Shown piece by piece: positions 10,189-27,716 of a stretch of 44,404 nucleotides of DNA. Source of the stretch: an uncultured virus (IMG/VR IMGVR_UViG_2061766007_002618) (taxonomy: Duplodnaviria > Heunggongvirae > Uroviricota > Caudoviricetes). The stretch is taken from the IMG/VR virus record IMGVR_UViG_2061766007_002618, one strand, 5' to 3'. A program made the position numbers and the translations under genes. Numbering within the stretch: the stretch's first letter is position 1; the number at the start of each line of letters is the position of its first letter. The notes beneath the pieces were generated by a model. It was given only the letters and a program-made list of their open reading frames with translations. It searched no databases and had not been told where the DNA came from.

Positions 10189-11103
10189 TTATGCGGAAAG
10201 TGCGTACTGCAAGATGGTCGTGGAACGGGCGATGTAGAGGTTCTGCCCAGCGCGGTCGATGGCGAAGCCGTGGACGTAATTAGTCCCTAAGTCCCATACG
10301 TGATCAAAAGACATAGTGGAAATGTTAAATGGCGCGGAAAGTTTAAACACAAAGAATACGCCCGTATCGTAAGCATCTTTACTCCACAATAAAGTTAAAA
10401 TAAAACCATCAGGTGAAAACTGCCAGTCACGAAAATGATTGGGGTCTGACGCAACATTAGAAATGCCACAGTTTGAAGTGAAGCGGGAAAATGACACTTG
10501 GGTATAAACAAGAGAGGCGGAAGAAACGTCAAAAGGAACGGAAAGATAATATGAGCGCATTGAGGCAGTGCTAAGAACTAAAAGAAATAAACCATCTGAA
10601 GAAAATGCCAAACCTTCCACCATTTCAGTATATTCATAAAAAGCACTCATATCTGACCATGCTTGGATTGATGATATGTCAAACGCCGAATCAAGAGGAC
10701 ATGAATACACGTCGTGCTGATTCCCCTGGCTTGGCACGCGTCCCTGTCTGACAAAGTGCAGGCCGTCAGCCGAAAAGGCAATTGGACGAACGACGCTGTT
10801 AAGCACGCTATTCGTTGTATGAGAAATAGAATAAGGCGCATTCTGGAGGTAATATATATCTCCATAGTGCCCTGCGGGGAAATTGTAACGCCTGGTTATA
10901 GAACTCTCTTGCTCAAGTAAAAAAGAAGAATCTGCGGGAAGAAAAAGACGCCGTGGAGAAACAGCGGAGCCATTAACCGCAGGGGCTTGGGAATTCAAGA
11001 GTGTTGCGGAATTGACATATTCGGATTTTGTCAAATCGAAATTCCAACCTATCGCGGAGACGCCCTGCCTGAACGCCGCGCGTCTGTGAAGTGCGTATGC
11101 CAT
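10189..11103 (-). CDS. Beta-propeller-like tail/receptor-binding protein
   Basis: ATG at 11103 overlaps the fibre stop (TAATG). Repeated blade motifs FSADG/FSSDG/FSPDG, each followed by LDSAFDISS/LSVPFDVSS/LSAPFNIST. Confidence 0.65.
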   Translation of the reverse strand: MAYALHRRAAFRQGVSAIGWNFDLTKSEYVNSATLLNSQAPAVNGSAVSPRRLFLPADSSFLLEQESSITRRYNFPAGHYGDIYYLQNAPYSISHTTNSVLNSVVRPIAFSADGLHFVRQGRVPSQGNQHDVYSCPLDSAFDISSIQAWSDMSAFYEYTEMVEGLAFSSDGLFLLVLSTASMRSYYLSVPFDVSSASLVYTQVSFSRFTSNCGISNVASDPNHFRDWQFSPDGFILTLLWSKDAYDTGVFFVFKLSAPFNISTMSFDHVWDLGTNYVHGFAIDRAGQNLYIARSTTILQYALSA

Positions 11104-13796
11104 TACCAAGCCTCCATGTTCCCGGAGCGGACAAACTGAATTGCGACGCCAAGTAGAGACACCTGTTCGGTGAGCGTGTCCGCACTACTCGTCGCCTCGC
11201 GCTTGAGCCAGAAGTGGACGCGCTTGCCGGCAAGGTAGGTGCCGTCAACGGTGATCGGAAGCGCGGCGGTCACATGCTCCTGGTTGTAGCTTGCCACGGT
11301 GTCGTCGATGTAGGCGTATGTGGCCGGGGCGATGTCAATAGGCGAGTGGTTTGTCATGAAGCTTGCCTTGACGCCGAAGCGGACGACTTGACTGGAGCCG
11401 AAGCCGGAATTGTAAGGAGTCCAATGAAGCTTGAGCTTTATCGCGCCGCCGTTCCAGTCGTCGGGGAAAACAATGTCGAAATCAGCAAAGGAATCCCGCT
11501 CGTTCGTGAAGCGAATCGTATCAAAGGCGGAGAGGCCCGTGCTGCGACTCAAGGTCTCCGCGACAGCGCTATTCGTTAGGTTGGGCGTGATTGCGCCGGC
11601 CGGAACCCACAGCACGTCGCGATGCTCGAAAGCCTGGGCATGGGCGGCAATTTGCGCGGCCGTCACCTTATGGAACGCGCCATTGTGATAGACGAGCAGT
11701 TCGTCTGCATCCACAAGCGGGTCATTGCTTGCAAGCTCGGCTTGGTCATGAATGCTGACATGCTCGGAGCCGGTTTGAATCGGAGGCTCGCCCCACGTGC
11801 CATCGCCAAAGAGAATCTTTGTCGCGTCACCGGCCGCCGGCGCGGGGACAAGTCCCGTCGTGCCACCGGCGCCCGTGTCGGGCGTAAAGGCCTGCGAGCC
11901 GGGAGGCGTCCCCCATGTGCCGTCGCCCTGAAGATACTTCGAAGCAGCCCCATCCAGCTTGGGCAGCAAGCCCGGCGCTTCCGTGGTGGCGTTGGAGGTG
12001 GTGACGTCGGCGCCAACCGTGAGCGCCGTGAGCGGCGTCTCGTGAAGCAGGTTGAGAATGTAGTCCCAGATGCGGGAAATCTTGCTCTTCTTGACAGCTT
12101 GTACGGAAACATCCGAAACAAGAAAGGTGTCGTTGTCGGTGAGGGCGGCATTTATCTCGCTCGCGCCGTTGTGGTCAACAAGTCCTTCTAGCTTGGCCTT
12201 GTCGGCGGCGGACATCAGGCCGTGGCGACTGGTGGAGGCGTCAAGGTCCGTTCCTTCGTCAGGTGCGGCGAGCTTGTCGAGCTTCTTGTTGTCGAGCGCA
12301 GTTTGGACAATGTTGACGGCAACGCGAACGGCCTTTTCGGTCGCGACAGCGGCATTGCTCGCATTTGTGGCGTCGCGCACCTCCGTGACGAGCGACGTGC
12401 CGCCCTTGAGAAGTGCGCCCGTACTGCCGTCATAAAGCGGAATCTCGCCGTCGGCGTGGAGGCCCGTCTTGACCACGGTGTCCAACGCCTCGGCCACGGC
12501 AAGCTCCGTCGGCACATGATCGTCGTCGGCACCGGCTGGCGGGNNNNNNNNNNNNNNNNNNNNNTTAGCCGCGACGCCTTGCGACATGGCACCAGTTATT
12601 GCGGCGCGGACGGCCTTTTCAGTTGGAATCCTGGAGTCGGACGTGGCGGAATCCGTTTCGTTCACCTCCGTCGTCACGGTTGGCCCCGCTTCCAAGTTGC
12701 GGCCATTTGAACCAAATTTCGCCAAATCTCCTTGCGCATGGGTGCCGACGGTGAATTTCACATCATCGTCAACATACCCCTTCACGGCGTCAATACCTGT
12801 GCGGACGGCCTTCTCCGTCGGGATGTTGTCGTCGCTTGCTGTCATGGCAATGGCAACGCTCGTCACAATGCCCTTGCCTGTTCCAAGAACGCCGGTCGTG
12901 TTCGCATAGACGGGGAGATTGCCCGTCGTGGTGGACTCGGGAACCATCGCGGCGACTTTGTTATCGGCATAGTTCCTCGCAGCTGCCGCAGTCGGGAGCT
13001 GCGCATTCGTTGAGTTGCTATCAAGCGCAGTCGAAACAGTCAACCCGTCCTGAAGCGTTTTCGCATCCGAACCCCATTGAGGCACTTTGTTTGCTGTCGT
13101 CGTGCTAGGCCCATGAACAACATTGGCCAGAGCCAGCATGTCTTTCATTTGCCACTTGCGGAGCACCGTGCCGTTATGGGAGAAAACATATTCCGTTGTC
13201 GCAGGCTGTGAGGTTTCCGTGGCAATCTGATTTAGATACGCGCCAAGGCCATTAAGAATAAAACTGCGGACGGTTGAAAGCGGTACTTTCTTATTCGTTA
13301 ATGTCTCGTCCTCAAGTTGAGCGACAAGCATCAAGTTGCCGTCGCTCAAAGACTCGGCGGAGGTCATTCCACTTAGTTCGATTGTGGCCACGATTTGAGT
13401 GCGAAGGTACGCCGTCAGCTGCGTGAGCGTCATTGTGAACTCATCATTGCCCTTTTTGACAACGAAAGTGTCCGTGGCGGCGACGGTTTGGACGCCCGCC
13501 TTGGCAAAGGCGTAAGCGATGATGGTATTGGCGAACTGCGCGCCGGACGCGAATTTCAACGCACCTGCGGCATTCTTCCAGGTCACGCTACCTGTGGAGG
13601 CGTCAAATGCGTCCGTGCCGCTGCCTGTTGCGAAAGCAGCCGCCTCCTGAATAACCGAAAGAACGTATTTGGCAATGTTGGCCGTCGAAATGCTTCGCGG
13701 CTGATAGCTTCCAGAGATTTCCTCCACGGCGGGGATGCGCTCCGCTCCGCCTATGGTGGCATCATCTGTAGCTTCCTGGATTTTCATGTTTGCCAT
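11103..13796 (-). CDS. Tail fibre protein (897 aa)
   Basis: Five ~60-aa repeats ending in PTEKAVR-like motifs; GLMSAADKAKL and GLVPAPAAGD...GDGTW fibre motifs. Confidence 0.8.
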   Translation of the reverse strand: MANMKIQEATDDATIGGAERIPAVEEISGSYQPRSISTANIAKYVLSVIQEAAAFATGSGTDAFDASTGSVTWKNAAGALKFASGAQFANTIIAYAFAKAGVQTVAATDTFVVKKGNDEFTMTLTQLTAYLRTQIVATIELSGMTSAESLSDGNLMLVAQLEDETLTNKKVPLSTVRSFILNGLGAYLNQIATETSQPATTEYVFSHNGTVLRKWQMKDMLALANVVHGPSTTTANKVPQWGSDAKTLQDGLTVSTALDSNSTNAQLPTAAAARNYADNKVAAMVPESTTTGNLPVYANTTGVLGTGKGIVTSVAIAMTASDDNIPTEKAVRTGIDAVKGYVDDDVKFTVGTHAQGDLAKFGSNGRNLEAGPTVTTEVNETDSATSDSRIPTEKAVRAAITGAMSQGVAAXXXXXXXXPPAGADDDHVPTELAVAEALDTVVKTGLHADGEIPLYDGSTGALLKGGTSLVTEVRDATNASNAAVATEKAVRVAVNIVQTALDNKKLDKLAAPDEGTDLDASTSRHGLMSAADKAKLEGLVDHNGASEINAALTDNDTFLVSDVSVQAVKKSKISRIWDYILNLLHETPLTALTVGADVTTSNATTEAPGLLPKLDGAASKYLQGDGTWGTPPGSQAFTPDTGAGGTTGLVPAPAAGDATKILFGDGTWGEPPIQTGSEHVSIHDQAELASNDPLVDADELLVYHNGAFHKVTAAQIAAHAQAFEHRDVLWVPAGAITPNLTNSAVAETLSRSTGLSAFDTIRFTNERDSFADFDIVFPDDWNGGAIKLKLHWTPYNSGFGSSQVVRFGVKASFMTNHSPIDIAPATYAYIDDTVASYNQEHVTAALPITVDGTYLAGKRVHFWLKREATSSADTLTEQVSLLGVAIQFVRSGNMEAW

Positions 13797-15513: not shown

Positions 15514-17421
15514 CTATTTTGAAAACAGCACGACGTTAGAACGGTGCTTACCATCCTTTGAGCAAATTACAAATGCGTAGGCGTCGGCGGCCTCTATCGC
15601 ATCCTTGCGCCAGCCGTTGTAGCCGTCGCGAACATTCTCAAAGCTGCGCGTGGTCCTGGACGTGCTGATCCAGTCAACTTTGCCGCCCTGCCATTTGCCG
15701 CCAATGCGCACGAACAAGCAGGCGAGGCAAGAGGCATCCGTCGCGGACGACGCGCCGAGCTTTTCGCAACCGCCTTTCACCCATTTGTAGGAAAGGCCGC
15801 TTGACGAAATCTTCAAGCTCCCGATTTGAACGCCGTCCACGAGCGCCGCCTTTTTGCCGGAGAACCCACCCCAGCACCAGTCGAGCGCGCTAAAATCCAC
15901 ATCGTCAGCGGATTGCGTTATTTGCTGGTCATTTGCCGGCGCAGGTGGCACGGATGGCACGGATGGCGCGACAACCGGGCCGCTGCCCTTCCAGTTGCCG
16001 CAGGCGAAAGCCCCCGCGTCGAGCGCGGCCTGCGCCTTGGACTTGTCCGGGCCGCGCGAATACTCAAAGCCGTTGACTTCATACCCTTTGCCCTTGAGAG
16101 CCTTCACGGACTTGGCAATGTCAGCCGTCGTGCAAGACGGGTCAAGCTGGTCCATCACAATGGAGCCGAGCGAGGCATGTGTGCTTTTGCCGGAGGTGTG
16201 ATGCGTCGCGAATGGCCCCGTCCAGCCGGCGGCCTTGATTGCGTCGCGGAGGGACTTCCATTTCGCGGATGAACCTTCGCCTTCGTTCATTTCGAGGCCG
16301 AGAACTATGTAGCTCAAGTACGGCATGAAATCCTTTAATCCGGCGGCATACTTCGCGGGATCGGCGAAAATCTTTTGACGGTAGCCGTCGCTATCGTCGG
16401 CCACGACCCAGGCGACGACGCCGAGGCCGCGCGCGCGAATCTGCTGAATGCGCTTCAACGCCGTCTTGTGCGCGGAGGAATCGGCCAGCGCGTCATAGCC
16501 CGCGCCCTCACCGTCCGCCTCGTTGACGAGCAGGAGGTGAACGTGATCGCACCCGATGCTCACCTGCCAATCCAAGTATTCCTTAACTTTGGAATCGCTG
16601 AACTTCGGGCTGACAAGGTTCATCATGCGCTTGCTCGCGTCGCTGCCATTCCAGTTGGACGAATACTTGCAATCCTTCCACGCCTTCGCGGAGGCAGCGA
16701 CGTAGACGACCTCGGACTCGACTCCGCCCGCGCCCGTCTCGGCCACGGCCTCGATGCGCTGCTCCTTGCCCATCGCGCGGAGGACGGCATTCGTCCCCTC
16801 GATTTCCGCGACGGTCCAGTTCGGCGGCGTCCCGCAGCCGGCGGCGAACATGAGCGCGGCGAGGATGCTGTGAAGCCCCAGGAGCTCTTTCACGTCGTGA
16901 TACCAACCCTTCGAGAACTCGCACACCTCCCACGCGAGACGCGCCTCGATGCGCCCGACAAGGGAGTCGGAACTGGCATACATCCAGAGAGCGTAGAGAA
17001 TCCCGTTGCCCCACCCGAGGACGGCCTTCTCCGAGACATGCCAAGCCTTCGCAAGCTCCTCCCGGTGCTCCCATATCAGATCATGAAAGAGGCTCGCCAG
17101 CATTGAGCGGTACTTGTCATTTTTCAACAGGTCCGGCCCGTTCCAAAGATGGCTTGACGCGGGAAACGGATTCGCGGTCACGCGGACGCCCCAATCCAGC
17201 CCGTTCTCGATGGGCGTGATTGAAAGGGAACCGTCCGCCGTCGTGATCTCTTCAACGCAACCACCGCCCTGGAAGAGTGTGACATCATCGCCAAAGAGCG
17301 CGACGGAAACCTTCTCGTCAAGGCCGAAGGAGGCCTCGTTGTCCTCGCGGATATACTTGATAACCTTGTTTGCCACTTTCGTCACCTTCCTTGCCGTCGC
17401 AATCGCCGCCGCCGTGTCCAT
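15514..17421 (-). CDS. Multidomain protein: DUF1353-like N-terminus, internal lipoprotein signal, glycoside-hydrolase-like TIM barrel, Pro linker, C-terminal domain
   Basis: ASLFHDLIW motif; LAALMFAAG-C lipobox (Cys codon 16834-16836); YIVLGLEMNEG, FATHHT and VNGFEYS resemble clan GH-A strand ends; PSVPSVPPAP linker. Confidence 0.5.
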   Translation of the reverse strand: MDTAAAIATARKVTKVANKVIKYIREDNEASFGLDEKVSVALFGDDVTLFQGGGCVEEITTADGSLSITPIENGLDWGVRVTANPFPASSHLWNGPDLLKNDKYRSMLASLFHDLIWEHREELAKAWHVSEKAVLGWGNGILYALWMYASSDSLVGRIEARLAWEVCEFSKGWYHDVKELLGLHSILAALMFAAGCGTPPNWTVAEIEGTNAVLRAMGKEQRIEAVAETGAGGVESEVVYVAASAKAWKDCKYSSNWNGSDASKRMMNLVSPKFSDSKVKEYLDWQVSIGCDHVHLLLVNEADGEGAGYDALADSSAHKTALKRIQQIRARGLGVVAWVVADDSDGYRQKIFADPAKYAAGLKDFMPYLSYIVLGLEMNEGEGSSAKWKSLRDAIKAAGWTGPFATHHTSGKSTHASLGSIVMDQLDPSCTTADIAKSVKALKGKGYEVNGFEYSRGPDKSKAQAALDAGAFACGNWKGSGPVVAPSVPSVPPAPANDQQITQSADDVDFSALDWCWGGFSGKKAALVDGVQIGSLKISSSGLSYKWVKGGCEKLGASSATDASCLACLFVRIGGKWQGGKVDWISTSRTTRSFENVRDGYNGWRKDAIEAADAYAFVICSKDGKHRSNVVLFSK

Positions 17422-17882: not shown

Positions 17883-18607
17883 TCAATCAAACATCCACGA
17901 AACCGTCTGATACGCCATGCCGGTCAACTTTCGTGGCCGAAAGTCTTTTGACAGGCGAAAAACATCAACGGGTTCGTACTCGTCAAAAAGCGCGTTGTAT
18001 TCGTCACGGACGGTTATCCACGTTTTCGCGCCCTCCAGCAATTCGTCATGGAGTTTCTTGTCGGACTGCTCCAAAGCGTCAAACTCGGCCTTGATTTCCG
18101 CCGATTCTTTCCGCCATTCTTCAAGTGACTCGTCGAATCCATCGGCGCCATAAATAAGACACGCGGCGCAATCGACGATGTACCCGTCACCAGAAATGCC
18201 CGTGTACTTTGACTTGCCCGATGAAAGCAATTTGAGAACATTGGCGCGGGCGAATTCTGCAAATTCACGCGACCGCTCCTCTCGTCCAACTTGAAAGAAC
18301 CGTTGCGTCACAGCGTTTATTTGCGCCCATTTCGACAAGAGGATGCCGCGATTCTTTGAGCAATAATAAGCGAACTTGGAAATTGCCTCTCGATCATCCT
18401 CCGGCGTTGTCTCAACTTTGAGGCGGCCGAGGTAATTGGCAAATGGAAGGAGTGCGCGATTGTTGAAAAGAACGTGACCGTCCGCAATCTTGAAGCGAAG
18501 CGGCAGGTCNNNNNNNNNNNNNNNNNNNNNNNNNNNNNNNNNNNNNNNNNNNNNNNNATGCGGCGTTGAGGGACGCTGACAATGACGTTGTGCGGGCGAT
18601 ACTTCAT
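17883..18607 (-). CDS. Hypothetical protein (gap 18510-18557)
   Basis: MKYRPHNVIVSVPQRR start (ATGA overlap with the upstream stop); after the gap DLPLRFKIADGHVLFNN reads in frame into ORF 17883..18338. Confidence 0.6.
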
Positions 18608-19176
18608 TGTCTCACCTCGATTTCCGTCACAGAATTTGTAAGCACGGCCTCGATGGCCTCGTCTGGCAGCATCTGCCGGAGTGCACGGAATGCGCCCTGC
18701 ACGACGGGGTTCTGCTCGTCCAACACAACGCTGTCGTTCCAATCCTGCAAGACTTCTGCATCGGCAGAAATGAAAGTCCAAATGTCATTCCATGCGTCAT
18801 ACGCGCGGAGCTGCTGTTTTAGCCGCATCTTGCTCAACTGGAGATTGCGCGGCGGCAGCGCGCGCCAAGCGAATATCGGCACGATGGCATTATTGGACAC
18901 GCACCAGAGGCCGGAAGCCTCGGCCACGAATCCGGCGCGAACGGGCGCGTTCGTCACTATAGGTAACCAACCTTGCACGGAGTATTGCGTCGCAGACGGA
19001 TTGAGAACGGTGACGGGGTGTGAAAACGCGCGCCCGTTGACGATGTTGCCGAGGTTAAGGGAGATGGGAGCATACTCAACCGTGTTGGAGGCCGTGACGC
19101 GCCCGTAATCACGATTGACGGGAGCGCTGAGAACTGGCAGCGCGGCAAGCAAGGCTATAAGAAGAAATCTCATCAC
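18604..19176 (-). CDS. Signal-peptide-bearing protein with tail-fibre-assembly-chaperone-like C-terminus
   Basis: MMRFLLIALLAALPVLSA signal; C-terminal LSKMRLK..L...W......I.....W.......P.V resembles fibre chaperones. Confidence 0.55.
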   Translation of the reverse strand: MMRFLLIALLAALPVLSAPVNRDYGRVTASNTVEYAPISLNLGNIVNGRAFSHPVTVLNPSATQYSVQGWLPIVTNAPVRAGFVAEASGLWCVSNNAIVPIFAWRALPPRNLQLSKMRLKQQLRAYDAWNDIWTFISADAEVLQDWNDSVVLDEQNPVVQGAFRALRQMLPDEAIEAVLTNSVTEIEVRQ

Positions 19177-20195
19177 ATTGCACCTCCTACGGGATGGCAG
19201 GAAACGAACCAGTTGTATCGGTCAATCTGGCGCAAATCCCAGTAATACATGCCGGTGTTTGACCAGAAGTATGAAGTCGAAAGATAATCGTCGTACCAGA
19301 CCGTCGCCTCGGTCGAGAAGTAGAAGGATGGCGTGCTGTTTTGCCAGTCCCCGGCGTTGCTGAACCAGATGGCGCAGCGGGCGGGCGTCCCGTTCCACGT
19401 CGGGAGTGTGATGTAGTACGATGACCCCGAGTAGGAGCATGTCATCACGACATGGTCGACGAGCTCGAAGTCGGAGCTTTCCGTCGAGTCCGAAGTCCAA
19501 GAGGAGCNNNNNNNNNNNNNNNNNNNNNNNNNNNNNNNNNNNNNNNNNNNNNNNNNNNNNNNNATGACCGCGTTCGTGGCGTTTATCTCGTCGCGGACGG
19601 CCTGCACCTGCGACGGGATGTTCGTCACGGAGTTGTAGGTCTGCAAATCGTCCGCGAGTGTCGACGGCAGATTGTTGATTGTGGCGATCTGCGCCCACAT
19701 TGCGCGGNNNNNNNNNNNNNNNNNNNNNNNNNAGAAGGTCGTGAGCTTCCAGTCGAGGAACGGGTCCGTAACGAGGTTCCCCAGTCCCGCAAGGCCGGTC
19801 GGGTCGTCCGGAATCTGCCTGTTGTACCAGAAGTCGCACCCGTCGAGGTCTATGCGGCCTTTCGGCGAGGAGGGCGCGCCGTAGATGGTGTCGCCGACAA
19901 AGAGGACGCCGGGCACGTGCGCCTGCTCCACCTCGACGATGTTCGAGACGGCGACGACCCAGCCGNNNNNNNNNNNNNNNNNNNNNNNNNNNNNNNNNNN
20001 NNNNNNNNNNNNNNNNNNNNNNNNNNNNNNNNNNNNNNNNNNNNNNNNNNNNNNNNNNNNNNNNNNNNNNNNNNNNNNNNNNNNNNNNNNNNNNGCGTTA
20101 AGGAGGTCGGCGATGCGTAGGTCGCGGACGGTCTGGCTAGACGCCGTTAAGCAAATCGTCGCGACTAACGCGGATATTGCGAGGCTTTTTCTCAT
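19173..20195 (-). CDS. Signal-peptide-bearing tail fibre/adhesin-like protein (gapped)
   Basis: MRKSLAISALVATICLTASS signal; aromatic/Ser-rich C-terminal domain; three internal gaps. Confidence 0.55.
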   Translation of the reverse strand: MRKSLAISALVATICLTASSQTVRDLRIADLLNXXXXXXXXXXXXXXXXXXXXXXXXXXXXXXXXXXXXXXXXXXXXGWVVAVSNIVEVEQAHVPGVLFVGDTIYGAPSSPKGRIDLDGCDFWYNRQIPDDPTGLAGLGNLVTDPFLDWKLTTFXXXXXXXXXRAMWAQIATINNLPSTLADDLQTYNSVTNIPSQVQAVRDEINATNAVXXXXXXXXXXXXXXXXXXXXSSWTSDSTESSDFELVDHVVMTCSYSGSSYYITLPTWNGTPARCAIWFSNAGDWQNSTPSFYFSTEATVWYDDYLSTSYFWSNTGMYYWDLRQIDRYNWFVSCHPVGGAM

Positions 20196-21171
20196 AGGGC
20201 AATTTCTCCGGGAGAAGGCGCTTAATTGTAAGGTTCAACTCGTCCGGGCCCGAAAGCCGGAACAGAAGATAGCCGTCGAAGCCCGCGCGAACACGAATGA
20301 AAGTCTCTGGATAATTAAGCGGGAGGAGTTCGAGGATGTCGGCGTAGGGCAGATTGACAGTCACGGACGCGGGGACGCCGAAGCGACAGGGCAAATCGTT
20401 GGAGTAGGTGATCGGCGGGNNNNNNNNNNNNNNNNNNNNNNNNNNNNNNNGCCAAGCACCGTGAAGGACGTGTAGACGTACCGCTGATTCCCATTGTCAT
20501 TCGCGCAAACCTCCGCGAAGTGATTGGTCTGCCAAGCAATTGTCGCGGGGTTGTTTGTCCATGACATTGGATCTGGCACAGGATATATTTGCTCTGTGGC
20601 ATAGAAGAAATATGAATAAGCCTTGCGCTCTGCACCGATGCTGTTATTCTGGTGTTTGGAATAATAATCGTAATCCACGCGCCAAAGCACGTTTGTGATT
20701 TCCTCGNNNNNNNNNNNNNNNNNNNNNNNNNNNNNNNNNNNNNNNNNNNNNNNNNNNNNNNNNNNNNNNNNNNNNNNNNNNNNNNNNNNNNNNNNNNNNN
20801 NNNNNNNNNNNNNNNNNNNNNNNNNNNNNNNNNNNNNNNNNNNNNNNNNNNNNNNNNNNNNNNNNNNNNNNNGTTCCCGCCGGCGCTCCTGGAATGGAAC
20901 CGGCGATGCGGATGTACCAGTCACCCGGCCACATATAGGGAGCCACGGACTTTTCAAGGGAACGGACAATGTTTGTGACGGCCTCGCCGTCCGTGCCGCC
21001 ACCACCGCCTTGCGCCGTCACGACGATCTCGCCGTTGGTCAGCATCAGCCCTTCGCCGATAACCGTGTCGCCGGAAACGTCCTGCCACTCCGTCGCGGAC
21101 GCGGCGAGCGCGAGGAACGCCACGAGGCAAAGCCCGAACTCCTGCAACGTCTTCACGACGCGCCCAAGCGC
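20137..21171 (-). CDS. Fragments of variant tail protein(s), including an alternative allele of the C-terminal part of 21302..22450
   Basis: 21171-20873 reads VKTLQEFGLCLVAFLALAASATEWQDVSGDTVIGEG (homologous to 21784 onward) and then diverges; further open fragments at 20706-20451 and 20419-20137. Confidence 0.45.
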
Positions 21172-21181
21172 NNNNNNNNNN

Positions 21182-21302
21182 GTTCCTTGCTCACACGGAC
21201 AACAGCCTCATACGCGCCGTGATTCCGCAGCCACATGAAGATGCGACCTTCGGCAAACACGGAGAGAGAAAGGAGTGTAAAAAGTAATGCAAGGCGTTTC
21301 AT
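21182..21302 (-). CDS. 5' fragment of a signal-peptide-bearing protein (missed by the ORF track)
   Basis: TAATG coupling at 21302; translates MKRLALLFTLLSLSVFA-EGRIFMWLRNHGAYEAVVRVSKE up to the gap. Confidence 0.7.
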
Positions 21303-22450
21303 TAGTCCTCCTTTTTCAAAGCATTCACGATGGCGTTCAAGGCATCCACGAGGTCGCCCACGGTCGAAGAGGCCGTGAGCGGCGGAAGGTTGGTGCGGAC
21401 ATCGATGGCGGAGAGGTCGCCCTTAACTGCCAGTTCCCGGTCCGGGTTGCCGAAAGCATCTTTGTAAAACACAGCGTCACCTTCGGGGTCGGTCGCATCG
21501 CAGCCTTTGCGAAGAAGTGCATCGCCGAAAGAAAAGGCATCTGCCTGTATTTCTGTGACGCGAACAACCTCATACTGGTCTGGCTTAATGTAGCCCTCAT
21601 CCGCTACGATAGCCTGCACGTCGTTGGTCGAAAGGCTATCGCCTTTTACGCTTATCGTGCCATTGGTGAGGGAAATCCCTTCGCCGATAACCGTTTCGCT
21701 CGGAACGTCATGCCACTCCATCGCGGACGCGGTAAGCGCAAACGCCGCGACGAGGCAAAGCCCGAACTCCTGCAACGTCTTCACGACGCGCCCAAGCGCC
21801 GTGCCAATCGCGCGCTGGCTTGAGTAGGTCGTCGGCACGTCGGCGAACGCCTCGCGAATGTCGGACATGGAAACGCCCGCAGGCCCAGGAGGCCCCGTCA
21901 GGTCGTCACTCTCCCACGTCGAGCCGTCGCCGAACGTGAAAATGATTCTGCCGCCGGATTGCTCCACGGAGTCAATCACCTTCGTCTCGACAAGCCTTTT
22001 CAGCTCGGCGATTTCGGCAAGCTCGCTTTCGATTGTCACGGGGTCCTGCATGTCCCCGTCGCCGATCCAGTTCATGACCGTCACGCGTCCACGGGCGACG
22101 AGACAATTCTGCGTGTCGTTCTCCACCGCGACGAGGAAAGTCATTTTGCCGTTTTCGGGAATGAAGCGGAAACTCTTGATGAGCGCGTCCGTGTTGCAGT
22201 TGAGCGTCGCCGTGAGGACGGTGTTTCCAGCATCGTCGGGCGTCGCCGTCCATTCGTCCGCGTCGTCGAACGGGAACTTCGCCACGTCGCCGAGCTTGCC
22301 GCGAATGCGGACATGAATATCGTCGCCGGACTCCATCGAACCGGGTGGCATGACCACCGTCAGGGCGACGGCCTCGCGCACGGCGATGATTCCCTCGCAG
22401 ACGAGGCTTTTCGTCTCAATCTCCGGCAAAATTCTCAATGTGCTAGCCAT
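21302..22450 (-). CDS. Tail protein, BppU-like N-terminal domain, short collagen-like linker, internal signal-like segment
   Basis: Beta-rich N-terminus, LTGPPGPAG, internal KTLQEFGLCLVAAFALTASA. Confidence 0.55.
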   Translation of the reverse strand: MASTLRILPEIETKSLVCEGIIAVREAVALTVVMPPGSMESGDDIHVRIRGKLGDVAKFPFDDADEWTATPDDAGNTVLTATLNCNTDALIKSFRFIPENGKMTFLVAVENDTQNCLVARGRVTVMNWIGDGDMQDPVTIESELAEIAELKRLVETKVIDSVEQSGGRIIFTFGDGSTWESDDLTGPPGPAGVSMSDIREAFADVPTTYSSQRAIGTALGRVVKTLQEFGLCLVAAFALTASAMEWHDVPSETVIGEGISLTNGTISVKGDSLSTNDVQAIVADEGYIKPDQYEVVRVTEIQADAFSFGDALLRKGCDATDPEGDAVFYKDAFGNPDRELAVKGDLSAIDVRTNLPPLTASSTVGDLVDALNAIVNALKKED

Positions 22451-23124
22451 TACGCCCAGCCTCCGTAGTTGACCGCATCCGTGCCGCGCGGGCCAATCGC
22501 CTGGAATGCGGCCTCGTTGACGGCCTTTTCAAAAGTGATTTTCTCGCTCGCCGCCTGCGCCGCGTCGGTCCACGGGCGGTTCTGCATGGCAAAAAGCCTT
22601 GAAAGTGCGCCGGCGACAATCGCCTCGCCGAACTGGTCCACGAACGGCCCTGGCAAATCCTCGCTGTTCATGCTCGGAACGCAGTCAACCTCGGCGATGA
22701 AGCCCGTGCAGGACGAAATGAATTCCTCGGTAATCGCGCCCGTGAACACCACGACGGGGCCAGGTTCAACGGTCCACTTGCGATTCGCGGGCGTGAACAC
22801 CTTGTGCGTCACCTCCACGCCATCAACCGTCTCAACCCACAAATGGAAGAACTTCACTTCGCGGACGGCCTTCACGCGGCAGTCGCACGGCGCGACGACG
22901 GGGTACGACCGACGCCCAACGTCGAAAGTGACGGGAATGTGGAAGCGGAGCGCGCTTGTCCGTTCGCAGAAATCGCGGCAGGCCGCCTGCAAGGTCTTGC
23001 GGACCATTACGTCGTCGCAGCCGGGGAGACGATAAACCATGTCGTCGGCGAGGCTTCCGAGGTTGCGGAGGTTGGCCGCTACCGCGTTCTCTTCCAGGGC
23101 GTTCTTGTACTCAAGGATTCCCAT
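22450..23124 (-). CDS. Head-tail adaptor (tail tubular A-like)
   Basis: Likely start MGILEY at 23124 after GGAGG; LPGC.......L..A..DFCERT and AIVAGAL.RL..M..RPW motifs typical of podovirus adaptors. Confidence 0.7.
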   Translation of the reverse strand: MGILEYKNALEENAVAANLRNLGSLADDMVYRLPGCDDVMVRKTLQAACRDFCERTSALRFHIPVTFDVGRRSYPVVAPCDCRVKAVREVKFFHLWVETVDGVEVTHKVFTPANRKWTVEPGPVVVFTGAITEEFISSCTGFIAEVDCVPSMNSEDLPGPFVDQFGEAIVAGALSRLFAMQNRPWTDAAQAASEKITFEKAVNEAAFQAIGPRGTDAVNYGGWA

Positions 23125-23132
23125 TCTGCCTC

Positions 23133-23510
23133 CTACGCATGGGCCAGCGCGTTGAACTCGGCGAGGTACGCCTGCGCGCGCTGCAAGGTAAAGTCGTCGG
23201 CGGCGTCCATGTCGAGGCACTTCGACACGGCGAAGCAGCGCACGGCGCGTTCCCAGCGCGGATCGCACGGAAAGTCCATTGACTCCGCGCTGGTCACGTC
23301 GCTCGCGGCGCTGTTTTTCGTCAAAAACGGGAATTCGATATCCCGCACGAGCTTTATGCCGCGATACCGCGACTGCGGGCAGACCGAATTCAACATGCGG
23401 ATTCCGTCGAAGATGTTGGAGACGATGAAGGACGCCGGATAGGTGCCGTCCGGCGTGTGTTCCGCAAGCAGCGTCTCGCGGACCTTCGTTTCAATGTCCC
23501 CAATCGTCAC
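23133..23510 (-). CDS. Head completion/adaptor-type protein
   Basis: GTG start after GGAGG; MTIxDI..KVRxxL pattern; synteny. Confidence 0.55.
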   Translation of the reverse strand: MTIGDIETKVRETLLAEHTPDGTYPASFIVSNIFDGIRMLNSVCPQSRYRGIKLVRDIEFPFLTKNSAASDVTSAESMDFPCDPRWERAVRCFAVSKCLDMDAADDFTLQRAQAYLAEFNALAHA

Positions 23511-23522
23511 GGCGGAACCCTC

Positions 23523-23927
23523 CTACTTCGTGGCGATGCCGCCGAAAATGTCGCCGTCGGTCGTCGCGTCCTTCGCGGACTTCCCACGCTTCTTCGCGGC
23601 GGGAGCGGGCGCAGGGGCGGGCGGCTCGTCGGTCGGGATTGTCACGGTTTCCACCGGGGCCTCCGCAGGGGCTTCCGCAGGGACTTCCAGCGGAGCGGGA
23701 GGCGCGGAAGGCGGAGCGGGAGGCGCGGGCGGATTCAGGAGCATTTCGGGGTTGCCGTTGCGCTGGACGCAGACAATCACGTCCTCCATGCGCAGCTTGT
23801 GCGCGAAAACCGCCTCGGCAACCTTGTCGGAAATCAGAACCTCGTCTTTGTCGAGGGGAATCTCTTCCAGGTTGCGGCTGACCGCGAGCGGGAAAATGGC
23901 AAAATGACTGGTGGAAAGAATCTGCAT
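23523..23927 (-). CDS. Hypothetical protein with Pro/Ala-rich tail
   Basis: ORF with RBS AGGAG downstream of the capsid genes. Confidence 0.7.
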   Translation of the reverse strand: MQILSTSHFAIFPLAVSRNLEEIPLDKDEVLISDKVAEAVFAHKLRMEDVIVCVQRNGNPEMLLNPPAPPAPPSAPPAPLEVPAEAPAEAPVETVTIPTDEPPAPAPAPAAKKRGKSAKDATTDGDIFGGIATK

Positions 23928-24024
23928 GGTTATCTCCTGTTGGGGGATGAGGGACTCCCCGCGGAGCCTGCCACGGGGAAAGTTTGTTTTAAGCCTTTAA
24001 CAGGTAGGCTCCCCAACAAGGAAG

Positions 24025-24534
24025 TTAATCCATGAAGGGACAATCGCCGTACAGCGTGACTACAAAGCGACCGTCGGAAACGGCGGCACTAGGCACGATG
24101 TACAGGTACTGCGGATTGCCCTTCGGGACGAGGTAGGGCGTCGCGAGGTTCTGGATGCTCGGCGTGTTCGTCACGGTGGCTGTCCATTGCGTGAACGCCT
24201 GAGCTGCGGCAACGGCACCGTTCGTGCCGATGTTGGCCGTGTAGGACGCGGCGCTCGTGCAAGTGCCGCCCTTGTAGTCCTTTTCGGGCTTGATGGCCGC
24301 ACCACGGACGAGGAAGCCAGCCGGAACCTTCGCGAGAAGGACCTTGTTGGTGACGCCGGCGGGGACGCGGGCGAAGTCAACGACCGCGACAACCTTGCCG
24401 TTGACAAGGTGCGCGTCGCCGACGTAGCCATTCGGCGCGAGATAGCCTGCCACCGTCGCCGGAGCGGCGATGGCGAAGCTGATGGAGAGAGCCGCGACGA
24501 GCGCGGCGGCGAACAGTTTGTGGCACTTCTTCAT
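24025..24534 (-). CDS. Capsid decoration/cement-like protein with N-terminal Sec signal peptide
   Basis: ATG at 24534 after GGGAGG, directly after the capsid gene; MKKCHKLFAAALVAALSISFAIA signal; beta-rich mature part (VVDF...LAKVPAGFLV...GRFVVTLY). Confidence 0.65.
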   Translation of the reverse strand: MKKCHKLFAAALVAALSISFAIAAPATVAGYLAPNGYVGDAHLVNGKVVAVVDFARVPAGVTNKVLLAKVPAGFLVRGAAIKPEKDYKGGTCTSAASYTANIGTNGAVAAAQAFTQWTATVTNTPSIQNLATPYLVPKGNPQYLYIVPSAAVSDGRFVVTLYGDCPFMD

Positions 24535-24548
24535 TGTCTTTCCCTCCC

Positions 24549-25610
24549 TTAGAACCGAAGAACAGCGTAGCCGACGCGCTCGGGGTAGACCGGAATCCAG
24601 TCGTAGGCAACCATTGCGCGGTGGTAGTCGCCGAAGGTCTTCTCGAAGCGGCCGGCCTCGATCTTGGAAACCTCCAGGTCGTAGCAGATGCCGGAGCGGT
24701 CGCCGAACAGGCAGATATAGTTGCCGTTGGCGTCCTTCGGGCAGCGGTTCGACTTGTAGACGCGGATTCCGCTGATCATGCCGCAATCCACAATGTCCTT
24801 GCGGATGAGCGAAACGGCGTCCCCGGAGAGGGAGGCGTCCTTCAGCTCGCCACGGGCAATGCGGTTGAGGCCGATCGGAGGCAGGACAATCCACTTCTCG
24901 CCGCCAGCGTCGTTGCCGGACTCGGGCTCTTCCGCGAGAACGGTGTCGATGTTGGCGATGAAGTCCGTCATCGGTATCTTGTCGCCGAAATTGCCGGCGG
25001 AGGTGCCAATGACAGAACCCGTGTCCGCATCCGCCTTCTCCTGCGTGAGGTAGATCTTGACGGGGTTCACGGAGTTGCCGAGCGCGAAACCGCCGGTGAG
25101 ACGGCCCGCGTGGTTGCCCGTGTTGCCGCCTTCGCCGTTCACGCCGGTGTAGCAGAGCTGCGGCGCGGTGGCGAAGAATTCGTCCTCGATATCCGTGTCC
25201 ATCTGGAGGGTGCACTGGCGAATCCAGTCTTCGCTCCAGCGCTTGACGTCCGAGAACGCCTTGGCGAGGTCGAGAACGCGGAACGCCCAATAACGCGAGC
25301 GCTTGATGGCGTACTCTTCTTCGCTGGACTTCGGGTCTTCGTAAACGAGGTCCTGCCCGTCAACGTAGGGGCGGGTGTGGAACAGGGGCTTGTGGCGGAC
25401 CTTGATCTTGTCGCCGACGCCCTTGAACGCGCCTTCGTACTTGGAGTTCGTGAGGCTCTTCATGATGTTGTTATCACGGAGAGACTCTTTGAGGTCGGGG
25501 GCGTACACTTCGGGATGGTACCCGGCGAGGTCGCCCCAGTTGGACGGGCGGAACTGGAGGGATGGCCCCGTTCCGGACCCGGTGATGATGGGTGAGCTCA
25601 TGGAGTTCAT
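24549..25610 (-). CDS. Major capsid protein (HK97 fold, P22/T7-like)
   Basis: TNSKYEGAFKGVGDKIKVR motif, C-terminal RFEKTFGD..R....YD.....PE; follows the scaffold gene; strong codon bias. Confidence 0.85.
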   Translation of the reverse strand: MNSMSSPIITGSGTGPSLQFRPSNWGDLAGYHPEVYAPDLKESLRDNNIMKSLTNSKYEGAFKGVGDKIKVRHKPLFHTRPYVDGQDLVYEDPKSSEEEYAIKRSRYWAFRVLDLAKAFSDVKRWSEDWIRQCTLQMDTDIEDEFFATAPQLCYTGVNGEGGNTGNHAGRLTGGFALGNSVNPVKIYLTQEKADADTGSVIGTSAGNFGDKIPMTDFIANIDTVLAEEPESGNDAGGEKWIVLPPIGLNRIARGELKDASLSGDAVSLIRKDIVDCGMISGIRVYKSNRCPKDANGNYICLFGDRSGICYDLEVSKIEAGRFEKTFGDYHRAMVAYDWIPVYPERVGYAVLRF

Positions 25611-25648
25611 GGTTGATTCCCTTCCATGGCCGGCCAGCGCCACTTACA

Positions 25649-25771
25649 CTACTTGCGCAGCGAATCAAATGTGAACTGGTCGGCGAGTTTCTTCATCTCG
25701 TCGCGGATGGCATCGTACTTCTTGCGGTCGATCCGTCCGTCGCGGAGGTCGCGCCATGCCTCGTCGAGGAT
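25649..25771 (-). CDS. Scaffolding protein, C-terminal fragment
   Basis: ILDEAWRDLRDGRIDRKKYDAIRDEMKK overlaps the sequence at 26986-27035. Confidence 0.7.
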   Translation of the reverse strand: MLDEAWRDLRDGRIDRKKYDAIRDEMKKLADQFTFDSLRK

Positions 25772-26508
25772 NNNNNNNNNNNNNNNNNNNNNNNNNNNNN
25801 NNNNNNNNNNNNNNNNNNNNNNNNNNNNNNNNNNNNNNNNNNNNNNNNNNNNNNNNNNNNNNNNNNNNNNNNNNNNNNNNNNNNNNNNNNNNNNNNNNNN
25901 NNNNNNNNNNNNNNNNNNNNNNNNNNNNNNNNNNNNNNNNNNNNNNNNNNNNNNNNNNNNNNNNNNNNNNNNNNNNNNNNNNNNNNNNNNNNNNNNNNNN
26001 NNNNNNNNNNNNNNNNNNNNNNNNNNNNNNNNNNNNNNNNNNNNNNNNNNNNNNNNNNNNNNNNNNNNNNNNNNNNNNNNNNNNNNNNNNNNNNNNNNNN
26101 NNNNNNNNNNNNNNNNNNNNNNNNNNNNNNNNNNNNNNNNNNNNNNNNNNNNNNNNNNNNNNNNNNNNNNNNNNNNNNNNNNNNNNNNNNNNNNNNNNNN
26201 NNNNNNNNNNNNNNNNNNNNNNNNNNNNNNNNNNNNNNNNNNNNNNNNNNNNNNNNNNNNNNNNNNNNNNNNNNNNNNNNNNNNNNNNNNNNNNNNNNNN
26301 NNNNNNNNNNNNNNNNNNNNNNNNNNNNNNNNNNNNNNNNNNNNNNNNNNNNNNNNNNNNNNNNNNNNNNNNNNNNNNNNNNNNNNNNNNNNNNNNNNNN
26401 NNNNNNNNNNNNNNNNNNNNNNNNNNNNNNNNNNNNNNNNNNNNNNNNNNNNNNNNNNNNNNNNNNNNNNNNNNNNNNNNNNNNNNNNNNNNNNNNNNNN
26501 NNNNNNNN

Positions 26509-26974: not shown

Positions 26975-26984
26975 NNNNNNNNNN

Positions 26985-27716
26985 TTTGCGGTCGATCCGT
27001 CCGTCGCGGAGGTCGCGCCATGCCTCGTCGAGGATTTGCGCGCGTTCCTCCTGCGTGATGGACCGATTGTTGAGTCCGACGCCATATCCGCTTTCCGAAC
27101 GTGACGGGCTGGGCGTAGCGCCGCCGTTGCCCGTCGAAACACCGCCCTCGGAGTAGAACCGATTTATCAGGTCACACATTATGTCCGTGTTGAACGTGCG
27201 AATCGCAAATTCAGCCGTTTCGCGGTTCTTGCCAGACGAGAGGAAGTTGTACCAGGCGTTTACGTTCGGACCGTTTTCTGCGGTCGCCGCAAGGAAACCT
27301 GGGTATCGGGCTTCGACACCATCCAGGAAGGCTTTTTCCGCGCGCGCCCTGTCCTGCTGGTCAAAGCGCTCGGCTAGCTTCTGGAGGTCCTCTTCCTGTT
27401 TCTTGAAGCGCGGCGCGAACTCTTGTCCCACCACGCTGCAAGTCTCGTTCAGGGTGTCCGCATCGATCCTGTCTCTCATTTCCTGGGAAACGCGGTCGAT
27501 GGGTTTTAGCTGCGCGGTCTTGAGTTGTTCTATCTCGGCCCGCAGCTTTGCGTTCTCTTCGTCCTTGGCCTTCAACTGCGCGGAAAGCGCCTTGACGCGG
27601 CCCGCCTCGACGCGCTGGTTATTCGCCTCGCGCTCGACTTCCTCGGGTGTCCGCGTGTCGGCGGGTTCGCCGTCCGTCGGTCCAAGATTTATGTGCTTCT
27701 GGTCGTTCGTGTCCAT
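26985..27716 (-). CDS. Capsid scaffolding protein (main part)
   Basis: Acidic coiled-coil ORF between the portal and capsid genes. Confidence 0.7.

Follow-up and report, generated by a model that had tools for sequence, protein, structure and literature searches.

To our knowledge, the particles of tailed phages are taken to be completed in the cytoplasm. Virion proteins that are made with a cleavable signal peptide and processed by the host leader peptidase are known from filamentous phages (the procoat proteins Ff pVIII and pIII), which assemble at and through the membrane. Among tailed phages, the solved proteins most useful for comparison with the gene described here are the cement proteins of Ralstonia phage GP4 (gp1, PDB 8H89 chain J), cyanophage Pam1 (7EEL chain H) and Helicobacter phages KHP30/KHP40 (7DN2, 7DOU). 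These jelly-roll or Ig-like proteins of 124-157 aa are encoded beside the capsid gene with coupled expression, and have no signal peptide. The GP4 report (PMC9698820) gives 540 cement and 540 capsid copies, with cement trimers on the quasi-threefold axes. In BPP-1, the bbp16 gene (Pfam Bbp16, PF21190, E 3.3e-52) directly follows the capsid gene bbp17, as the earlier note on this DNA had stated, and the 140-aa product of bbp16 is described in PMC3863775 as a jelly-roll cement protein. The BPP-1 capsid protein belongs to a different family, Pfam GP7. Mycobacteriophage Che8, which has the solved capsid nearest to the one considered here, is stated by its authors to have no decoration protein (bioRxiv 10.1101/2022.09.09.507160), which shows that this capsid type can do without cement. 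In the full-text literature searched, which lies largely outside the subscription journals, no description was found of a Sec signal on the cement or decoration protein of a tailed phage, and the terms signal peptide, signal sequence, periplasm and secret- are absent from the main text of a 2020 review of decoration proteins (PMC7602432).

The window, the whole stretch of 44,404 nucleotides analysed here, is from an uncultured virus of the Caudoviricetes (IMG/VR record IMGVR_UViG_2061766007_002618). It encodes a protein of 169 aa on the minus strand at 24534..24025 (ATG 24534-24532, stop 24027-24025) immediately after the major capsid protein gene. The features of this region are listed in the direction of transcription.

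24549..25610, minus strand: major capsid protein gene (353 aa, HK97 fold, Che8-gp6-like).
24535..24548, minus strand: 14-nt spacer, with a strong Shine-Dalgarno sequence GGGAGGG 7 nt before the ATG (read from the sequence).
24466..24534, minus strand: predicted signal peptide, residues 1-23 (MKKCHK, hydrophobic core, A-I-A; tripartite features in 11 of 11 homologues).
24028..24465, minus strand: mature domain, residues 24-169, a predicted eight-strand jelly-roll-type beta sandwich (AlphaFold2 model, fold searches, dN/dS).
23928..24024, minus strand: intergenic region with two stem-loops and no U-tract (RNA folding).
23523..23927, minus strand: next gene, 134 aa with a Pro/Ala-rich middle (ORF list; no family match).
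23133-23510, minus strand: adaptor-like gene (phrog_399, E 0.01 in the window and 7.1e-8 in contig L004).
22450-23127, minus strand: phrog_437 gene (E 1.9e-20).

The capsid ORF (25610..24549) matches phrog_267 (E 4.2e-14), and its profile matches Che8 gp6 (PDB 8E16 chain I, E 3.4e-31). A tblastn search with the capsid protein matched 8 phage records in all, among them four Rhizobium phages whose annotated capsid proteins are 26% identical to it over 95% of its length. The capsid stop codon, TAA, is followed by 14 nt (GGGAGGGAAAGACA) and then by the ATG of the 169-aa gene, and the start put 15 bp after the capsid stop in the earlier note was therefore right in position to within one base, the count being 14 nt. 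The two genes are adjacent in all five loci available (the window and the metagenome contigs L001-L004), each with a purine-rich GGAG-type site at the same place upstream of the second gene. In L004 the order is large terminase, portal, coiled-coil scaffold-like protein, capsid, 169-aa gene, a 125-aa protein, the adaptor-like protein (phrog_399) and the phrog_437 structural protein. The 134-aa protein that follows in the window (23523-23927, minus strand) has a long Pro/Ala-rich linker, PPAPPAPPSAPPAPLEVPAEAPAEAP. The protein is also conserved in L002, and may likewise belong to the head surface or the neck.

The window itself looks like a patchwork of joined contigs. It contains 38 N runs (for example 21172-21181, 25772-26508 and 26975-26984), many of them 10-N joins and others longer masked stretches. 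Three kinds of gene, scaffold-like, portal and terminase, are represented by repeated fragments lying on both strands; for example, the scaffold-like protein has its end encoded twice, at 25649.. and at 26985... The order of genes from one side of an N run to the other is accordingly untrustworthy, but the stretch 21182-25771 is free of N and the gene order around the capsid and 169-aa genes is therefore real. No second cement-like gene was found among 693 ORFs in the window and L001-L004, where masked stretches could hide one. Elsewhere in the window, a 306-aa ORF in the tail region (10189-11109, minus strand) looks compositionally foreign, with GC 0.46 and GC3 0.44 against about 0.6 and 0.7-0.88 in its neighbours.

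Composition, selection and transcription were considered for the 169-aa gene. Its codon bias is strong and shared with the capsid gene, as had been claimed, with GC3 of 0.81 and ENC of 37.5 (0.86 and 32.7 in the capsid gene) and a CAI relative to the capsid gene of 0.64, joint highest when compared with 14 other genes tested. These figures indicate that the gene is not a compositionally foreign insert. In the part encoding the mature protein, dN/dS lies between 0.11 and 0.48 in all 10 pairs formed by the five DNA copies, a sign of purifying selection, and on this basis the ORF is a real gene. Its tight coupling to the capsid gene fits the 540:540 ratio of the two proteins in GP4. No promoter of its own was found. 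The 97-nt intergenic spacer after the stop codon folds at -47.7 kcal/mol (z -4.26), and none of 200 shuffles folds as well. Two GC-rich stem-loops (approximately 23992-24010 and 23957-23978) were seen by eye at the same place in all five loci, with some paired changes, and this double stem-loop could be an attenuator or a transcript-end stabiliser bounding a capsid-plus-cement unit. A scan for canonical terminators returned 4 sites against a shuffle mean of 3.6, none of them in the intergenic region, and a terminator of this kind after the gene was rejected.

RNA runs from four libraries were selected with window positions 23000-25700. Contigs from the RNA libraries of two studies cover the gene (X15, 24129-24391 and 24359-24667; X17, 24039-24361), and the second X15 contig bridges the capsid stop and the start of the 169-aa gene; as such libraries can hold DNA, these contigs hint weakly at transcription. 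No truly fitting contig was found on 21182-24038 in X15, X17 and X20, and X18 gave two 151-nt contigs on 23010-23334; gaps of this kind are uninformative. Nine further studies contribute DNA runs, labelled as bovine gut or gut metagenome, that contain 0.44-0.61 of the words sampled from 23000-25700. Cattle-gut metagenomes from several studies contain the phage clade, which seems to be common in the cattle gut.

The mature part of the protein has 146 aa (15.0 kDa, pI 8.9), within the 124-157 aa spanned by the jelly-roll and Ig-like cement proteins of GP4, Pam1 and KHP30/KHP40. An AlphaFold2 model built from an 11-sequence alignment consists of an N-terminal helix followed by eight strands, but has a mean pLDDT of only 63.8. 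This modest model bears out the beta-rich domain of about 145 aa that had been proposed. Foldseek against the PDB gave two matches at E <=0.001, of which the best is the Pam1 cement protein (7eel_H, E 2.1e-4, TM 0.41/0.47) and the other a CBM4 module. Cement proteins from three more phages, KHP40, GP4 and KHP30, rank lower in the same search, and the best matches in BFVD are phage proteins of 143-153 aa. However, discoidin/CBM32 domains fit the model as well as cement proteins do. The check that had been proposed, AlphaFold and Foldseek against jelly-roll cement proteins, thus returned a fold compatible with them, Pam1 first, and a second class that fits equally well. As modelled, the mature domain is a jelly-roll-type sandwich that fits cement proteins without singling them out.

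The likeness to discoidin domains bears on the main rival to a cement function, namely that the protein is an exported accessory rather than part of the virion. It would be a beta sandwich resembling discoidin/CBM32 that binds glycans, is located in the periplasm or secreted, and is produced in large amounts in late infection. It would act on the envelope, for example by masking receptors on debris to spare progeny, by superinfection exclusion or as a lysis aid, and would occupy the cement slot by replacement or by descent. We regard this as a serious but rather unlikely account. Identity to discoidin, F5/8 type C or CBM32 modules in structural alignments is 4-16%, the likeness being one of fold only, and the genomic setting of such modules is an enzyme whereas that of the 169-aa gene is a phage head operon. 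No Pfam family matches the protein at E <=0.1, which includes F5_F8_type_C and CBM families as well as Bbp16 (PF21190) and Phage_cement_2 (PF09956, gpD-type).

Other searches with the protein or its family were equally empty. PHROGs gave no match, tblastn against 50,697 phage records gave a single match at E 8, and the best hits of the family profile among PDB sequences were unrelated peptidase fragments (best E 0.16). Against 1.84 billion representatives, the profile matched four proteins, the family's own representative and three of 628-3153 aa. The latter were treated as spurious as each contains 8-12 matched stretches; the one inspected (P0015) is a perfect tandem-repeat protein. Pattern matches to close relatives numbered 22 in the viral_contigs set and 109 in the genome_contigs set, and those to capsid relatives numbered 8 in viral_contigs, with none confirmed in any of these cases. 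Judged by sequence comparison, the protein family is an orphan. The cement proteins of the GP4/Pam1/KHP type likewise have no sequence similarity to it, although their genes, like this one, lie beside a capsid gene. Bbp16 shares its slot directly after the capsid gene and its similar length with the 169-aa protein, but the latter has no match to the Bbp16 family (gathering threshold 27.1 bits; Bbp16 itself 176 bits) and the hhalign probability between the two is 0.4%.

The slot after the capsid gene was then compared across related loci. A capsid-protein profile recovered 25 loci from contigs of bacteria and MAGs, in which the relatives of the capsid protein have 24-31% identity. A slot gene of 133-168 aa is present in 12 of them, its start falling in the interval from 38 nt upstream to 72 nt downstream of the capsid stop; two loci break off short of the slot, and the other 11 of the 23 with downstream DNA carry unrelated small ORFs. 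The 12 slot proteins align with one another (alignment A3), their model has a pLDDT of 82.6, and its four best PDB matches by Foldseek are all cement proteins (7dn2_1, 7eel_H, 8h89_J and 7dou_4). The slot in this capsid lineage hence often holds a protein of cement fold. The assertion that it usually does so is supported by these 12 of the 25 loci. Searching with A3 yielded 616 database proteins at E <=0.001, of which the 120 listed are 144-158 aa long.

This slot family (144-168 aa), found after Che8-like capsid genes in prophages and MAG contigs, has the same slot and strand order as the 169-aa protein, the size of its mature domain and the same nearest cluster in the ESM Atlas, but the sequence link between them is not significant. 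In hhalign, the 169-aa protein matched the slot family at E 0.067 and 0.059 over 39-40 columns, with P approximately 0.06. The local match (VVAVVDFARV...KVPAGFLV against V.V.LDFAKI...LPAG..V) is in a register that agrees with the strand order of both models. A HMMER profile of A3 gives the 11 members of the 169-aa family scores that do not improve on those of 231 decoys made by shuffling or reversal. Sequence homology to the slot family, convincing by eye, was therefore rejected as not significant by either method. In the Atlas, the mature domain and the slot protein of one related locus (L007) share their first cluster (151 aa, 62 members, all viral) with feature scores of 0.95 and 0.97, where shuffled proteins reach 0.95 about 1 time in 100 according to the tool, and they also share the same three nearest Pfam-bearing clusters. 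The score of the 169-aa protein to a Phage_cement_2 cluster is only 0.77. Its nearest clusters consist purely of viral proteins of 141-153 aa, as do those of the cement-fold slot family, which argues against an accessory of the discoidin type.

These indirect lines, from protein-language-model features and fold, place the 169-aa protein with the jelly-roll cement proteins of podoviruses, and it probably belongs to the cement class. The description of the gene in the earlier note as a capsid decoration protein is compatible with fold, slot and Atlas cluster, but finds no counterpart in any sequence relation to Bbp16, Phage_cement_2 or the slot family.

The N-terminus sets the protein apart from the cement proteins of GP4, Pam1 and KHP30/KHP40, as it carries a predicted Sec signal of 23 residues. 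It reads MKKCHK-LFAAALVAALSISF-AIA/AP, where the slash marks the predicted cut, with a hydrophobic core of 14 residues. Among 1357 candidates from 5.8 billion proteins, 10 relatives of the window protein were retained at 71-94% identity, forming a family of 11 sequences. In all 11, residues 1-6 are invariant with a net charge of +3, and there is an uncharged run of 17-18 residues, reaching 2.37-3.07 as its best 12-residue Kyte-Doolittle mean. Around the predicted cut, position -3 is A or S, -1 is A, +1 is A or D and +2 is Pro in every sequence. Retention of these features across sequences that differ to this extent rules out chance. In the signal region dN/dS is 0.47-0.98 where defined in the five DNA copies, the sequence shifting while its hydrophobic character is kept. 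By every feature that can be seen in the sequence, the segment is a predicted Sec/signal peptidase I signal, and this assignment is as firm as one from sequence can be. The cleavable signal peptide with an A-I-A motif claimed previously is in this way upheld, as a prediction, in 11 of 11 homologues. A lipoprotein signal was rejected because the N-terminal region has a single Cys, at position 4 ahead of the hydrophobic core, and no lipobox, and a Tat signal because there is no RR. An internal start giving a form without the signal was also rejected, as the frame has no further ATG upstream of residue 168 and L003 has GTC in place of the GTG at V28. Only one cysteine, C92, is widely kept (9 of 11 sequences), so formation of a periplasmic disulfide is not an obvious reason for export. 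The short signal of 23 residues and the strong Shine-Dalgarno sites only hint at the type of host.

The hydrophobic N-terminus could alternatively serve a purpose other than export, with the protein staying on the cytoplasmic side and decorating heads in the cytoplasm like ordinary cement. It might be parked at the membrane until heads mature, be trimmed by another protease, or contact the shell through its helix. As far as we know, cytoplasmic assembly holds for the heads of all tailed phages studied to date, as this explanation supposes, and 17-18 uncharged residues in a row come close to the upper length for a signal peptide, while invariance of residues 1-6 would be unusual for a mere targeting signal. 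Against this stands the full Sec pattern in all 11 sequences (n-region of +3, core, small residues at -3 and -1, helix-breaking Pro at +2), and the positive-inside rule would put the domain outside. Moreover, such a segment is absent from the solved cement proteins, from Bbp16, and from all 132 slot relatives examined (0 of the 12 slot proteins and 0 of the 120 A3 matches listed among the 616); the best 12-residue hydropathy does not exceed 1.88 in the slot proteins or 1.28 in the 120 A3 members, and is 1.13 in Bbp16. The 157-residue GP4 gp1 is traced from Ala2 onward (PMC9698820). Retention of the protein in the cytoplasm is accordingly considered improbable.

Signal-like segments were also observed elsewhere among the late genes. 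Four late ORFs beside the fibre gene begin with segments resembling signal peptides.

L002:4790-6175: signal-like ORF, 461 aa, beginning MKSLISILAALLALIFLLAFGTWA..
L002:6172-6870: signal-like ORF, 232 aa, beginning MMRKMLLPLLLLSALSVSA..
Window 18604-19176, minus strand: signal-like ORF, 190 aa, beginning MMRFLLIALLAALPVLSA..
Window 19173-20195, minus strand: signal-like ORF, 340 aa, beginning MRKSLAISALVATICLTAS..

The ORFs of 461, 232 and 190 aa were scanned against Pfam and no family was found. The fibre-like protein (792 aa, L002:2415-4793) has an internal segment, KTLQEFGLCLVAFLALAASA/TEW, that resembles a signal peptide or a membrane span. It corresponds to residues 224-250 of the ORF at window 21302-22450 (minus strand) and is repeated at window 20644-21156 (minus strand). 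The segment sits between an N-terminal part of 220 aa and a long distal part, and is preceded by a GTG with no clear ribosome-binding site. In a late protein of 635 aa (window 15514-17421, minus strand; L002:7332-8831), an internal hydrophobic stretch terminates in AAGC or FFAGC, which resembles a lipobox, and is followed by a conserved C-terminal domain with no Pfam match.

The presence of other late genes with signal-like starts in this clade, together with conservation of the predicted signal peptide throughout the family, would suit an exported accessory. So would the greater variability of the 169-aa protein relative to the capsid protein (71-94% against 91-94% identity) and the reported lack of any need for cement in the nearest solved capsid, Che8. 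However, all five loci have it next to the capsid gene as a fixed core gene, its codon bias is native and a separate promoter was not found, a combination not usually seen in sporadic morons.

The explanation that we consider best, though we put it at somewhat less than an even chance, is that the gene encodes an abundant late head-cement-type protein of a podovirus-like clade, which is made as a precursor with a Sec signal, exported, and able to reach heads only at lysis. The precursor would pass through SecYEG and be cut by signal peptidase I after A-I-A, so that the new N-terminus, APATVAGY..., would lie outside the cytoplasm. The mature domain would join the jelly-roll cement class of about 150 aa (GP4 gp1, Pam1, KHP30), the members of which form trimers on quasi-threefold axes at approximately 1:1 with the capsid protein. 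While DNA-filled heads are built in the cytoplasm, the mature 15-kDa protein would wait outside it. As heads and protein would be in different compartments, coating could occur only once holin action breaches the cytoplasmic membrane as infection ends, shortly before or just after the envelope bursts. Binding to finished capsids in vitro is known for lambda gpD, T4 Soc and phage L Dec, so such a late addition is physically plausible. The processing step would be analogous to that of the Ff procoat, another virion protein with a cleavable signal, except that this phage is tailed, having a terminase, a portal and an HK97-fold capsid, and heads of that kind are packaged in the cytoplasm rather than assembled at the membrane.

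Several points weigh against export followed by coating at lysis. Dilution at lysis would hinder coating after the cell has opened, no significant link to cement families is seen at the level of sequence, Che8 is reported without cement, and 11 of 23 slots hold something different. Reference to a periplasm or an 'inner membrane' also presupposes that the host is a diderm. A broader form of the explanation, which we consider doubtful, is a head made in two compartments, where the shell is filled in the cytoplasm and an outer cement layer, probably with fibre-associated proteins as well, is exported by Sec and added when the holin opens the membrane.

The protein is best filed as a probable cement-class head protein with a predicted export signal. 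This bears on annotation, as signal peptides in head operons are usually taken as signs of morons. The recurrence of the clade in the cattle gut means that material for particle proteomics exists. An exported cement protein, if true, would imply a maturation step at or after lysis, a cement protein given a new job at the envelope, or a step of head assembly linked to the membrane. Were the two-compartment head also true, lysis would be the last step of virion assembly.
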